Assembly (NCBI GenBank): GCA_946639585.1
Contig: CAMPBS010000001.1
Coordinates: 8,210 to 72,209 of the forward strand
Length of the DNA: 64,000 nt
Direction: 5' to 3'
Source of the DNA: an uncultured Clostridium sp.
GTDB lineage: Bacteria; Bacillota; Clostridia; TANB77; CAG-508
The notes under the pieces are model-generated. The model did not search any database, was not told where the DNA came from, and worked only from the letters and a program-made list of their open reading frames with translations. The translations under genes were made by a program, and so were the position numbers. Below, piece after piece: positions 49,985-63,835 of this stretch. The stretch's first letter is position 1. Each line of letters starts with the position of its first letter.

Positions 49985-50119
49985 GTAAAATATATTAATT
50001 TTTAAATCCTTGGTGTCGCAATTTCCATATTAAAAAATACTAGTATGTAAATTGCTCCAGTCGCCCTGCGCTTTGCTCCGGTTGGTCGCTTACGCGGATT
50101 TAAAATTAATATATTTTAC
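49985..50119. repeat. GC-rich structured element copy A, nested in a locus-specific 24-bp AT palindrome
   Basis: The arms are gtaaaatatattaatttttaaatcc / ggatttaaaattaatatattttac. Core 50004-50101 is about 90% identical to copy B. Confidence 0.85.
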
Positions 50120-50150
50120 AAAAGCAAATAATTAAAATAGGAGATGTTAA

Positions 50151-50852
50151 ATGAGTATATATGTAATAGCAGATTTGCACTTATCGTTAAAACATCCAAA
50201 ACCAATGGACATATTTGGCGATAATTGGGCAAATCATGAACAAAAAATAAGAGAAGACTGGCTTTCAAAAGTAAAAGAAAACGATTTAGTAGTATTGCCA
50301 GGAGATTTCTCATGGGAAACATATTTAAAAGAAACAGATAAAGATTTTGAATATTTAAATGATTTGCCAGGAAAAAAACTAATGCTAAAAGGAAATCATG
50401 ACTATTGGTGGACAACTTTAAATAGTATGAGAAATTATTTAAAAGAAAACAACTTCGAAAATATAGATTTTATATATAATAATAGTTATGAGTTTGAAAA
50501 TTATCTAATTGCTGGTACAAGAGGCTGGAGCGTAAAAGAAGAAGGCAACGAAAAAATGCTAAATAGAGAAACAATAAGACTAGAATTATCATTAAAAGAT
50601 GCTGTACAAAAATATGGAACAGAAAAAGAAATTCTAGTATTTATGCACTATCCACCAATCACACAAGCAGACTTACAACAAAACCAAGAACCAGAATTTG
50701 TTAGAATAATGAAAAAGTATAATGTAAAAAGATGCTTCTATGGTCACTTACATTCAAAATCAATCAAAGATGCAGTGGAAGGAAAATACTTTGGAATAGA
50801 CTTTAAATTAGTAAGTTCAGATGGATTAAATTTCAAATTATATAAAATATAA
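50151..50852 (+). CDS. calcineurin-like metallophosphoesterase
   Basis: VIADLHL, LPGDFSW, KGNHDYWW and YGHLH motifs. Confidence 0.8.
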   Translation: MSIYVIADLHLSLKHPKPMDIFGDNWANHEQKIREDWLSKVKENDLVVLPGDFSWETYLKETDKDFEYLNDLPGKKLMLKGNHDYWWTTLNSMRNYLKENNFENIDFIYNNSYEFENYLIAGTRGWSVKEEGNEKMLNRETIRLELSLKDAVQKYGTEKEILVFMHYPPITQADLQQNQEPEFVRIMKKYNVKRCFYGHLHSKSIKDAVEGKYFGIDFKLVSSDGLNFKLYKI

Positions 50853-50857
50853 TTTTT

Positions 50858-50965
50858 AGGCTTTTTTTTGGGAGTTTTTTTGGGACACCCCAAAAAAACC
50901 AGGTTAAAAAACACAAAAACCTGGATTTTTTTGGAGTGTCCCAAAAACCAGATTTAAAAAAAGAA
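50858..50965. repeat. composite of two inverted GGGACAC-type hairpin repeats, forming the leader of the ABC operon
   Basis: tttttttgggacaccccaaaaaaaccagg ... tttttggagtgtcccaaaaaccagatttaaaaaaa. Homologous to 54229-54312. Confidence 0.8.
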
Positions 50966-50976
50966 GGAGAGTAAAA

Positions 50977-51915
50977 ATGAATAATGTTATTGAAGTAAAA
51001 AATTTAGTTAAAGAATACAAAGAATTAAAAGCAATTGATAATTTGTCATTTGAAGTACACGAAGGCGAAATTTTAGGTTTACTTGGACCAAATGGAAGCG
51101 GAAAATCTACAACAATCAATTGTGTTTTATCACTTTTAAAAACATCAAATGGTTCAATAAAAATATTAGGAAAAGAAATGAAACCAGATAGCTATGAAAT
51201 AAAAAGAAAAATTGGTGTAATATTCCAAGATGTAGCTGTTTTTGATGAACTTACAGTTTACCAAAACATTGATTATTTCTGCGGTTTATATGTTCAAGAC
51301 AAAGAAACAAGAAAAAAATATGTTGAGGAAGCTATTGAATTAGTTGGATTACAAGATTTTAAAAAATTTTATCCTAAAAAATTATCAGGCGGTTTATTAA
51401 GAAGATTAAACATAGCTTGTGGTATAGCGCATAAGCCACAACTAATTTTCTTAGATGAACCAACAGTTGCAGTTGATCCACAAAGTAGAAATAATATATT
51501 AGATGGAATCAAAAAATTAAGAGATGCTGGTGCAACAATTGTCTATACAACACACTATATGGAAGAAGTTGAAATCCTTTGTGATAGAGTTATAATCCTA
51601 GATAAAGGAAAAATTCTTGCACAAGGTACAACTGAAGAAGTAAAAGAATTAGCAAAAATAGATGAAAAAGTAACAGTAGAAGTTAATAATTTAGATTCAA
51701 GTTACATAGAAAAAATCAAACAAAATAGCAATGTAGACGAAGTTACATATACAGATGGAGTTTTACTTGTTAAATATAAAGAAGGCAAAAACAACTTGGT
51801 AGATATGGTAGAGTTTTTGAAAAAAGAGAGTATAAAATATAACAAAATCAATTCAGAAAAACCAACTTTAAACGATGTATTCTTAGAACTAACCGGAAAG
51901 GAACTTAGAGACTAA
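50977..51915 (+). CDS. ABC transporter ATP-binding protein (ABC-2/DrrA type)
   Basis: Walker A GPNGSGKST, signature LSGGLLRR and Walker B LIFLDEP. Confidence 0.9.
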   Translation: MNNVIEVKNLVKEYKELKAIDNLSFEVHEGEILGLLGPNGSGKSTTINCVLSLLKTSNGSIKILGKEMKPDSYEIKRKIGVIFQDVAVFDELTVYQNIDYFCGLYVQDKETRKKYVEEAIELVGLQDFKKFYPKKLSGGLLRRLNIACGIAHKPQLIFLDEPTVAVDPQSRNNILDGIKKLRDAGATIVYTTHYMEEVEILCDRVIILDKGKILAQGTTEEVKELAKIDEKVTVEVNNLDSSYIEKIKQNSNVDEVTYTDGVLLVKYKEGKNNLVDMVEFLKKESIKYNKINSEKPTLNDVFLELTGKELRD

Positions 51916-62025: not shown

Positions 62026-63072
62026 ATGAGTGAAAACACAGAAAAGAAAAAAGCATTAGAGGCTGCAATGAGCCAAATAGAAAAACAATTTGGAAAAGGT
62101 TCAGTAATGAAACTTGGAGAATTCAAAGCGATGGAAATAGAAGCAATTCCAACAGGAGCATTAAGCTTAGATATGGCATTAGGAATAGGAGGAGTTCCTA
62201 GAGGAAGAATTATAGAAGTATTTGGACCAGAATCTTCTGGTAAAACAACACTTGCATTACATGTAGTTGCAGAAGCACAAAAAATGGGAGGAGAAGCGGC
62301 ATTTATAGATGCAGAGCATGCTTTAGACCCAGTTTACGCTAAAAAATTAGGAGTAGATATAGATAACCTAATAGTATCTCAACCAGATACAGGAGAACAA
62401 GCATTAGAAATAACAGAAAGCTTAGTAAGAAGTGGAGCCTTAGATGTAATAGTAGTAGACTCTGTTGCAGCTTTAGTTCCAAAAGCAGAAATTGATGGAG
62501 ACATGGGAGATTCTCACATGGGGTTACAAGCAAGATTAATGTCACAAGCATTAAGAAAACTTGCTGGAGCTATAAATAAATCAAAAACAGTATTAATATT
62601 CATAAACCAATTAAGAGAAAAAATTGGAGTTATGTTTGGAAATCCAGAAACAACAACAGGTGGTAGAGCGTTAAAATTCTATGCATCTGTAAGACTTGAT
62701 ATAAGAAGAATAGAAAACATCAAACAAGATGGAGAAGTAAAAGGAAATAGAGTAAGAGTAAAAGTAATTAAAAACAAAGTTGCTCCACCATTTAGAGAAG
62801 CAGAATTTGATGTTGTATATGGAGAAGGAATTTCAAAAGCAGGAAATATCTTAGATATGGCTGTAAACATGGATATAATCGAAAAGAGTGGTTCTTGGTT
62901 TAGTTATAATGGAGAAAGAATTGGACAAGGTAGAGAAAATGTTAAGAAACTATTACAAGAAAAACCAGAAATGCTTGCAGAAGTAGAAGAAAAAGTAAGA
63001 GCAAACTTTAAAAAAGGATTTGAAGAAAGCTTAGGAGAAGAAATTCCAGAAATAGATGATGATGAAGAATAA
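62026..63072 (+). CDS. recA: recombinase RecA
   Basis: [18 protein letters not shown] and the acidic C-terminal tail. Confidence 0.98.
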
Positions 63073-63095
63073 TTTTTTTAAAATTTACTAATTAA

Positions 63096-63231
63096 AATAA
63101 AATCATAAAATTTATAAATCCTTGGTGTCGCAACTTCCATATTAAAAATACTGGTATGTAAGTTGCTCCAGTCGCCCTGCGCTACGCTACGGTTGGTTGC
63201 TTACGCGGATTTTAAATTTTATGATTTTATT
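63096..63231. repeat. GC-rich structured element copy B, nested in a locus-specific 25-bp AT palindrome
   Basis: The arms are aataaaatcataaaatttataaatcc / ggattttaaattttatgattttatt. Core 63116-63213. Confidence 0.85.
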
Positions 63232-63250
63232 ATATAGGGGAAAATATATT

Positions 63251-63694
63251 ATGTATAATTTAGAAGAATTCGATAATGCAAAAACAAAAGTGTTAAAATA
63301 TGTGTTATATAAAAAAAGAAGCGAAAATGAAATTAGAACAAAATTTGCTTTAACCATAGAAGAAAATTTATTAGAAGATGTAATAGAATATCTAAAAGAA
63401 GCTAAATATATAGATGATACAGTATATATAGAAAGAACAATAAATGAAATAATGGCTTTAAGAAATCTTTCAATGAAAGAAATTAAATATAAATTATTTG
63501 CAAAAGGTTTAAATAAAAGCCTAATAGAAGATTATTTTTATGAACACAAGGAAGAGCTAGAAGAATACGAAAAAAAATCATCCCAAAACATAATCTATAA
63601 AAAATCTTCTTCAATGGATAAAGAAGAAATTAAAATTTATCTATTGAAAAAAGGATATAAAAGTGATATTATAAATTCGGTTTTATTAGATTAA
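63251..63694 (+). CDS. recX: RecA regulator RecX
   Basis: 147 aa of helical-repeat protein immediately downstream of recA (KVLKYVLYKKRSENEIRTKF...). Start at ATG 63251. Confidence 0.75.
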   Translation: MYNLEEFDNAKTKVLKYVLYKKRSENEIRTKFALTIEENLLEDVIEYLKEAKYIDDTVYIERTINEIMALRNLSMKEIKYKLFAKGLNKSLIEDYFYEHKEELEEYEKKSSQNIIYKKSSSMDKEEIKIYLLKKGYKSDIINSVLLD

Positions 63695-63700
63695 GTACTT

Positions 63701-63835
63701 ATAAAAATATGTTAAAATCGTTCGTCCTTGTTGTCACGACCCTCCGTATTTTAAAACTACTAGTGCGTCGGGTCGCTTCACCGCTCCGCTGCGCTACGCC
63801 TACGCGTCCTCACTCATTTTTAACATATTTTTTAT
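63701..63835. repeat. GC-rich structured element copy C (divergent), nested in a locus-specific 17-bp AT palindrome
   Basis: The arms are ataaaaatatgttaaaa / ttttaacatattttttat. The core shares blocks ccttg(g/t)tgtc, tcc(a/g)tatt, aaaa(a/c)tactagt and ctgcgct(a/t) with copies A and B. The central stem is replaced by cgaccc/gggtcg. Confidence 0.7.

Follow-up and report, generated by a model that had tools for sequence, protein, structure and literature searches.

The stretch analysed here (the window) comprises 64,000 nt of contig CAMPBS010000001.1 (assembly GCA_946639585.1, positions 8,210 to 72,209 of the forward strand; GC content 0.29) from an uncultured Clostridium sp., a spore-forming bacterium whose genes in the window include those for GerA, SpoVA and germination protease. 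A sequence-only reading had pointed to three GC-rich structured elements, each set in a long AT-rich palindrome just after a stop codon, and at all three positions we found a + strand element with the described anatomy (copies A, B and C; Table 1). The genes upstream encode TsaD, RecA and RecX according to Pfam, and the palindromes start 8 (A), 23 (B) and 6-8 (C) nt 3′ of their stop codons, as close as that reading had placed them. On balance, we regard the three copies as members of a previously undescribed family of ~130-base, non-autonomous intergenic hairpin repeats restricted to one clade of uncultured, spore-forming Clostridia of low GC (25-31%) in the rumen and gut, so far as these have been sampled.

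Copies A and B share 91 of 100 core positions, and copy C is divergent but collinear (62-66% identity to A and B), much as had been described. Core GC contents are 0.43-0.55, and the 5′ box TCCTTGKTGTCRCRA has three mismatch-free matches in the window, where 0.32 are expected at up to two mismatches. Each copy folds into one long hairpin with the AT-rich arms as its closing stem, and the whole elements were more stable than shuffled sequences when folded as RNA (z = -6.8 for A, -6.4 for B and -4.7 for C) or as DNA (z = -5.7, -7.0 and -2.7, respectively). In copy A, 20 of 21 arm positions are Watson-Crick pairs and the remaining one is a T:T mismatch; in copy C, strict pairing covers arm positions 63703-63717 and 63818-63832. 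A profile search of the window returned copies A, B and C only. The core matched no Rfam 15 family, in keeping with the earlier impression that it is unlike known non-coding RNAs: the sole window hit at gathering threshold was a tRNA elsewhere, and E-value mode gave chance hits only (E of at least 0.2). Plasmid and phage records searched with blastn in distant mode held no match to the elements. A resemblance to group II intron domain V (TACGGTT) was dropped, given an element of 90 nt, no AGC triad pairing and no Rfam intron hit.

Searches of public data, which the sequence-only reading had called for to count copies, yielded 43 distinct copies after duplicate removal. One pattern scan of species-representative genomes gave 16 hits, 9 of them real copies in four species-level metagenome-assembled genomes, all low-GC (the ruminant "Clostridia bacterium" RGIG2630, RGIG8360 and RGIG2424, and one "uncultured Clostridium sp."); one pattern scan of metagenome contigs added ~35 copies, every one in contigs of GC 0.24-0.32, the other hits being chance matches in high-GC DNA. 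Three pattern scans of viral contigs produced one chance hit and zero real copies. The distribution is patchy, because the 64-kb window holds three copies and none was found in 65 kb of DNA from relatives whose proteins are 83-92% identical.

The unit is non-coding and 120-165 nt long, and runs from an AT-rich arm (~14-33 nt) through the conserved 5′ box (TCCTTGGTGTCGC, or TCCTTGTTGTCAC in its C-type version), a covarying central hairpin with a variable apex (11 to ~90 nt), a likewise conserved CTCCA box and a CGC-rich 3′ domain to the complementary arm. Two subtypes are recognized by their signatures: ...TCCTTGGTGTCGCAA...CGCTTACGCGGA... for the AB type, where TCCTTGGTGTCGCAA is the 5′ box, and ...CGTTCGTCCTTGTTGTCACGA...CCTACGCG(T/G)(C/A)CTCACTC... 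for the C type; the 3′ box of the element is GGTCGCTTACGCGGA. Long-loop variants have the apex of the central hairpin enlarged by 30-90 nt (L007 2229-2392 and L078 9570-9750; L numbers are our labels for related DNA), and L038 and L073 represent a further variant form. The 3′ domain of the C type and of many AB copies carries a CGC triplet every 5 nt; this array is missing from the L014 and L015 variants and was thus rejected as a family-wide feature. In the C type, the domain is C-rich and G-poor, with (C-G)/(C+G) = 0.42. An allele of copy B (L105 3530-3740) has one additional GCGCT unit in the array, which indicates slippage of the pentamer repeat, and a T in place of a C in its 5′ box. Single-sequence folds also contained a 3′-domain stem CCAGTCG/CGGTTGG (two wobble pairs) and a small variable hairpin, which the C type lacks and which we do not claim.

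Covariation in the central hairpin, first noticed by comparing the three window copies, extended to the family: over 36 copies the covariation score was 0.253 against 0.119 for shuffled data (0 of 500 shuffles reached it; slid controls scored 0.06-0.14), for example at pairs 50/83 (CG 25, UA 11) and 56/77 (UA 18, GC 6, AU 2). Folds computed per subtype agree with this hairpin, and these together with pairing counts were used because RNAalifold recovered almost no structure from the mixed AB and C alignment, in which neither the arms nor the C-type hairpin align in register. Two compensatory double changes separate the orthologous copies L013 and L071 (GCAACTT/AAGTTGC versus GCAATTT/AAATTGC, and CAGA/TCTG versus CATA/TATG). 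Arm pairing within copies is Watson-Crick at 678 of 708 positions (95.8%), the mismatches being mostly a recurrent T:T of the AB type, ~6 nt away from the core; arms pair with their own partner at 21.4 of 24 positions and with those of other copies at 11.2 of 24. Departures from the arm consensus are mirrored on the opposite side (G/C in L079, L030 and L061; C/G in L037), as are indels. The stem is kept complementary after insertion by mirrored substitutions and mirrored indels.

The sequence-only reading had taken the arms to be unique to each locus, an impression owed to the window holding three copies only. The 43 copies show instead that each subtype has a consensus inverted repeat present at many unrelated loci: ~ (G)TAAAATATATTATTTTTAAATCC, about 21-23 nt, for the AB type, and CAATATGTAAAAC or TTATATTAAAC for the C type. 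The claim survives for the outermost 2-24 bp, which are copy-specific yet complementary. Past the consensus, the last 2-10 bp differ in every copy and still pair (for example, GAG/CTC, GTG/CAC, GCAAG/CTTGC, GGCAG/CTGCC and AATCT/AGATT), and L038 and L073, with core and inner arms in common, have unrelated outer arms of 16-24 bp, those of L038 being bordered by an A-run and a T-run in the manner of a bidirectional terminator. By analogy with template switching at quasi-palindromes, we favour hairpin-templated copying or correction of flanking DNA as the process that may have generated these outer base pairs.

Orthologous sites, recovered via RecX, metallophosphoesterase, RecA and TsaD homologues, include both filled and empty alleles, the comparison that the sequence-only reading had proposed (sites A, B, C, L007b, L007a/L015 and L061). 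Site A is empty in L111, whose tsaD DNA is 97.6% identical to that of the window and whose intergenic region measures 16 nt (18 nt in L088 and L089). Site B is filled in L025, L103 and L104-L110; its empty allele in L023 and L026 holds a terminator with the stem GGGAAAAAC...GTTTTTCCC. The clearest junctions are those at window position 11108-11113, where the filled RGIG2630 ortholog (Table 1) differs in length by exactly 130 nt, the 6 nt TATAAT make the junction ambiguous, and the palindrome reaches a few bases into the pre-existing flank on one side. At a second site that is unoccupied in the window (8079-8101), one ortholog carries a sense long-loop variant (L007 2229-2392), and an AB-type copy whose arms are different lies independently in antisense in another (L015 585-719). 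The whole unit, including its arms, is therefore inserted DNA that is present or absent at orthologous sites of close relatives. In a four-gene comparison, the window is closest to L023, which is empty at sites B and C, and is more distant from L025, where the two sites are filled. Since this relatedness disagrees with the filling of sites and since copy A is surrounded by a patch of divergence relative to L111, filled alleles probably also pass between lineages by homologous recombination. [quoted passage not shown]

Most copies lie in co-directional gene strings, 5-23 nt past a stop codon and 15-36 nt ahead of the next start, and fill the intergenic region; two are flanked by divergent genes and one by convergent ones. 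AB-type copies are oriented ~16 sense to 4 antisense, and C-type copies ~4 to 6. Of the 136 positions of copy B, 3 (none in the arms) differ between RGIG2630 and the window, compared with 13.5% of third codon positions in recA (P = 5 × 10−6) and 20.3% in the neighbouring SBP gene (P = 3 × 10−10). Comparison of three diverged orthologous pairs gave 18 differences in 426 element positions and 221 in 1878 positions of the flanks, which are mostly coding. The elements thus diverge ~3 times more slowly than flanking, mostly coding DNA, and such constraint, even if recombination inflates the signal, argues that the hairpin matters where it is located. Because the copies sit between closely spaced co-directional genes, they are probably co-transcribed within polycistronic mRNAs after insertion. 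Together with the AB sense bias, the constraint and the ordinary terminators found at the empty alleles of three sites (B, C in L103, and L061), this location suggests that a transcribed element could act as a large intercistronic stem-loop, serving as a 3′-end stabilizer, a processing site or a partial terminator or attenuator, much as REP, ERIC, Correia and bcr1 elements do; at some sites, it stands where relatives have an ordinary terminator.

Several results weigh against this combination of mobility and host function. Armless cores are no more stable than shuffled sequences (z ~ -1), and arm mismatches of the G:T and A:C kinds (4 versus 2) are too few to tell RNA from DNA pairing. The C-type copies have no sense bias, and no canonical terminator signature, in the sense of a short stem-loop rich in G+C with a T run after it, was detected at A, B or C, from which the genuine terminators of these genomes differ in appearance. 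Slow divergence may in part reflect recent recombination, as the L099 and L100 intergenic regions are identical while DusB is only 92% so, and as the patch around copy A relative to L111 (below) also indicates. Only one filled/empty pair has readable junctions, and TATAAT could there be a target duplication or microhomology. Finally, a mobilizing partner was sought, as the sequence-only reading had suggested, and the window encodes no TnpA(Y1)/RAYT or other transposase: among its 59 open reading frames (ORFs) of at least 90 amino acids, which are housekeeping genes or have no Pfam hit, none encodes a transposase, RAYT, integrase or reverse transcriptase. The interval between the two L064 copies contains ordinary genes only, and in 690 kb of related DNA nhmmer found just full-length copies and long-loop variants, and nothing longer that shares their ends.

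The family also fits none of the established classes. Terminal inverted repeats are present (arms of 14-33 nt with a subtype consensus, the extreme ends not conserved), but no consistent direct repeat adjoins 36 copies, as a classical MITE with target duplication would have, although the TATAAT ambiguity leaves a duplication possible at that one clean junction. Insertion points are not flanked by the conserved tetra- or pentanucleotide of IS200/IS605-derived PATE elements. A parent insertion sequence was found neither in the window nor, as a long element, in the 690 kb of related DNA. Hairpin-maintaining compensatory changes are those of REPINs, but the ends are variable and the conserved blocks central, in place of conserved terminal repetitive extragenic palindromic (REP) sequences. 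Nor do the ends fit attC core sites, the neighbours being housekeeping genes and the window free of integrase genes. The family is accordingly filed as a hairpin-forming intergenic repeat of no named family. The lack of direct duplication and the variable ends around a conserved centre whose stem is conserved only as structure lead us to favour, with low confidence, recognition of the element as a folded single strand in the REPIN/IS200 or attC manner over recognition of double-stranded ends by a DDE transposase.

A more specific version of this idea is a REPIN/IS200-like single-stranded DNA element, of which an HUH (Y1) transposase encoded elsewhere in the genome would move the folded top strand at replication forks, so that the sense bias would reflect replication direction and not transcription. 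We consider it unlikely, while granting it a real chance: the whole element forms a hairpin without evident target duplication, its compensatory changes are like those of REPINs, the gene-sense strand preferred by the AB type is the leading strand in the window (GC skew is positive throughout), and a second, REP-like palindrome family (GGGACACYCC) is abundant in the same genome, making a RAYT-type system plausible. Against these points stand the lack of a Y1 transposase in the window and of a conserved tetra- or pentanucleotide beside the insertion points, variable ends in place of the conserved 16-mer of REPINs, C-type copies without strand bias, and a constraint in place that is not predicted for a purely selfish element.

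The proposal of the sequence-only reading, that the core occupies, or was inserted into, the loop of an AT-rich terminator hairpin that already existed, would make only the GC-rich core mobile, inserting at the apex of long terminator hairpins whose arms are host sequence. The copy-specific, complementary outer base pairs are what it would lead one to expect, as are the common core and inner arms but unrelated outer arms of L038 and L073 and the terminator-like A-run and T-run flanks of L038. Core-less palindromes of the kind that it requires do exist, as had been observed (6729-6771 and 8578-8620; 21-bp arms, 95% complementary). We rejected these two as empty element sites; they are ordinary long-stem terminators of this genome, conserved, T-tailed, terminator-like hairpins both found in L007; L015 has the second one too, where its stem shows compensatory changes and a T run is present. 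Also in keeping with a mobile core is the occupation of three intergenic regions more than once (site C, window 8079-8101 and L063/L018). Site C is filled in the sense orientation in the window, and L025 and L104 hold a different core subtype there in antisense, with similar arms around the different cores (ATATGTTAAAA in the window and L025). We nevertheless judge a mobile core quite improbable, as the empty alleles at six orthologous sites in relatives have no AT-rich palindrome, which contradicts it for sites A, B, C and L007; the 130-nt L007 insert holds both arms; and the arm consensus sequences of the AB (~21-23 nt) and C (CAATATGTAAAAC) types recur at many unrelated loci. At the L038 site, some relatives are filled in the same way and the others carry a derivative with a 206-nt deletion; an empty palindrome was never found there.

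The third region of repeated occupation, in which L018 60-400 and L063 4300-4600 are orthologous sites with opposite core orientations, preserves further detail. In L018, a remnant of an old antisense copy (AAGGACGAACGG plus arm) lies beside the sense copy, together with a 25-nt direct duplication of the flank ATATAACTGCCTCTATAATATGAT, of which the new arms are copies. In L095-L098 (9858-9930), an L038-type copy has a 206-nt deletion that fuses the rodA stop directly to what is left of the copy, the final 20 nt of its core plus the right arm; the elements thus decay by deletion.

If whole units are mobile, as we prefer to think, the element, moving as a single strand recognized by its structure, might rebuild or extend its own stem from flanking DNA at each insertion, leaving an inverted copy of the target in place of a direct target duplication. 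Such a mechanism would explain the copy-specific complementary ends, the lack of direct duplication, the swapped and flipped cores within the same arms and the replaced terminators, but we hold it to be a speculative idea with little probability. If true, it would be an outcome of transposition or repair undescribed for bacterial elements and would yield a mobile, self-installing intercistronic stem-loop, then kept by host selection; only its confirmation would make the family a new class of system.

A further alternative is that the elements are immobile host cis-acting RNAs (terminators, attenuators or processing modules) whose patchiness results from loss and homologous recombination. Their slower evolution than the flanks, the compensatory changes, the position directly past stop codons with an AB sense bias, and the ordinary terminators at the empty alleles of three sites would all suit such RNAs. 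So would the diverged patch around copy A relative to L111 (49943-49976 and 50151-50170), in which the last 33 nt of tsaD hold 9 of the 24 differences in that gene and the first codons of the next gene differ too; this pattern suggests that the filled allele was imported by recombination. However, copies that are 90% identical occur at dozens of unrelated loci and in both orientations, one intergenic region has received independent copies that differ in their arms, one insertion is a clean 130 nt, truncated and composite copies exist, and terminator and promoter scans of A, B and C gave nothing above chance, neither a U-tract nor a GC-stem signature of a terminator being detected. Immobility is, in our estimation, very improbable.

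The attC sites of integrons are imperfect palindromes past stop codons, recognized as folded single strands and by structure more than by sequence. As markers of integron-type gene cassettes, the elements share with them ~130-nt imperfect palindromes past stops, a stem conserved more as structure than as sequence and, in the AB type, a conserved T:T mismatch, but flanking core housekeeping genes in conserved synteny effectively refute this explanation. Also against it are both orientations, a conserved part that is central and not terminal, ends that fit neither RYYYAAC/GTTRRRY nor R″/R′ core sites, and a window without integrase or cassette array; we give it practically no credence.

Among described repeats, the transcribed, MITE-like bcr1 element of the Bacillus cereus group (~155 bp) has a long stem-loop kept by compensatory changes and is patchy between close strains (PMC3184786). 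Compared by description only, the two families share residence in Firmicutes, intergenic position, a length of ~150 nt, patchiness among close strains, the long stem-loop and compensatory changes; bcr1 has 5-bp flanking direct repeats, whereas the present family has no consistent direct repeat and combines a GC-rich conserved centre with variable ends. In REPINs, the replicative unit is a hairpin with common compensatory changes, no classical inverted-repeat/target-duplication signature and extragenic dispersal (PMC3116915). All of these traits recur here, including compensatory changes on both sides, but REPINs consist of two highly conserved terminal 16-mers and a variable spacer, the reverse of variable ends and a conserved centre, and the present arms are AT-rich, unlike GC-rich REP palindromes, with no RAYT in the window. 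Correia/NEMIS and ERIC elements are reported to affect mRNA processing and stability. These elements of Neisseria and of Enterobacteriaceae, respectively, are MITE-like, 100-160 nt long and often co-transcribed, with 20-30 bp inverted repeats that form long RNA hairpins (PMC3184786). The family resembles them as short MITE-like repeats whose inverted repeats fold into long hairpins and lacks their conserved termini and TA duplication or flank. Intergenic 3′ stem-loops are reported to set cistron stoichiometry in Clostridia operons (PMC4423207, PMC9045158). [quoted passage not shown]

Most noteworthy are the copy-specific complementary ends, the swaps and flips of cores within shared arms and the strong constraint in place. 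If our reading is true, a mobile module places a ready-made ~25-bp stem-loop between housekeeping cistrons (such as tsaD, recA, recX and scpA) of abundant but uncultured rumen Clostridia, and the host conserves that module more strongly than neighbouring coding DNA. The family would be a natural system for studying how mobile hairpins are recruited as mRNA 3′-end or processing signals and how perfect long palindromes are maintained. Their practical bearing is modest: such repeats break assemblies and can give misleading results when rumen metagenomes are searched for non-coding RNAs and terminators, and they could serve as strain-level presence/absence markers.

Table 1. Elements, orthologous unoccupied sites and a second repeat family. 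Positions are those of the window unless an L number is given.
Feature	Position or locus	Strand	Remarks
Copy A, AB type, whole hairpin element	49985..50119	+	8 nt past tsaD stop, 31 nt ahead of next gene
Copy A left arm GTAAAATATATTAATTTTTAAATCC	49985..50009	+	Pairs with 50096-50119; fits AB-type arm consensus
Copy A central hairpin GCAATTT/AAATTGC plus CATA/TATG	50018..50055	+	Folding, covariation
Copy A right arm GGATTTAAAATTAATATATTTTAC	50096..50119	+	Pairs with left arm 49985-50009
Copy B, AB type, whole hairpin element	63096..63231	+	recA-recX interval; sequence, folding
Copy B central hairpin GCAACTT/AAGTTGC	63130..63166	+	Folding, covariation
Copy C, C type, whole hairpin element	63701..63835	+	recX-scpA interval; sequence, folding
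Copy C central hairpin CGACCC/GGGTCG	63737..63775	+	Folding, per-subtype fold
Site A empty	L111, L113, L115, L088, L089		16-18 nt intergenic, ribosome-binding site only
Site B empty	L023, L026		Ordinary terminator AAAAGGGAAAAAC-nnn-GTTTTTCCCTTTT, sequence unrelated to element
Site C empty	L023, L026		24-32 nt, no palindrome
Site C empty	L103		Ordinary terminator
Unoccupied site	11108..11113	.	RGIG2630 ortholog (L007 5460-5596) holds 130-nt AB-type insert including both arms
Unoccupied intergenic site	8079..8101	.	Small hairpin TAGTCAA...TTGACTA only
Second repeat family, copies	5102-5119, 26521-26538, 26987-27004, 29032-29049, 44765-44782, 50879-50896, 50928-50945, 54240-54257, 54276-54293, 56377-56394		

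Other repeats share the window. The second family, unrelated to the elements, has as its unit a short palindrome that contains GC, TTTTGGGACAC(T)CCCCAAAA, which ACCAGGTTT often follows; with 10 window copies against 0.17 expected, it looks REP-like, includes some inverted pairs (50877-50947) and forms a cluster between hsp33 and asnS in L025 (5300-5490). At that same hsp33-asnS spot, where L025 has its cluster of GGGACAC repeats and L026 a (AATAATAAAAA)n tandem array, the window has a palindrome with 33-nt arms (58707-58775) between the two convergent genes, probably a bidirectional terminator. The architecture of the hairpin elements recurs with unrelated sequence at 21224-21386 (36-nt arms, 83% complementary, around a 91-nt core with its own 25-bp hairpin at 21274-21329), past a rhodanese gene and with an ordinary terminator after it at ~21388-21410; it has no Rfam match, and the orthologous L078 region is without it. 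A 203-nt direct repeat (35314-35516 and 44920-45122; 74% identical, 9.6 kb apart) has one copy in an ORF without a Pfam hit near type IV pilus/type II secretion system genes. Finally, the GerA germination protein is split between two - strand ORFs (681-1505 and 1529-2386) that match profile positions 216-465 and 5-201, respectively, which could reflect a frameshift or a genuinely split gene.

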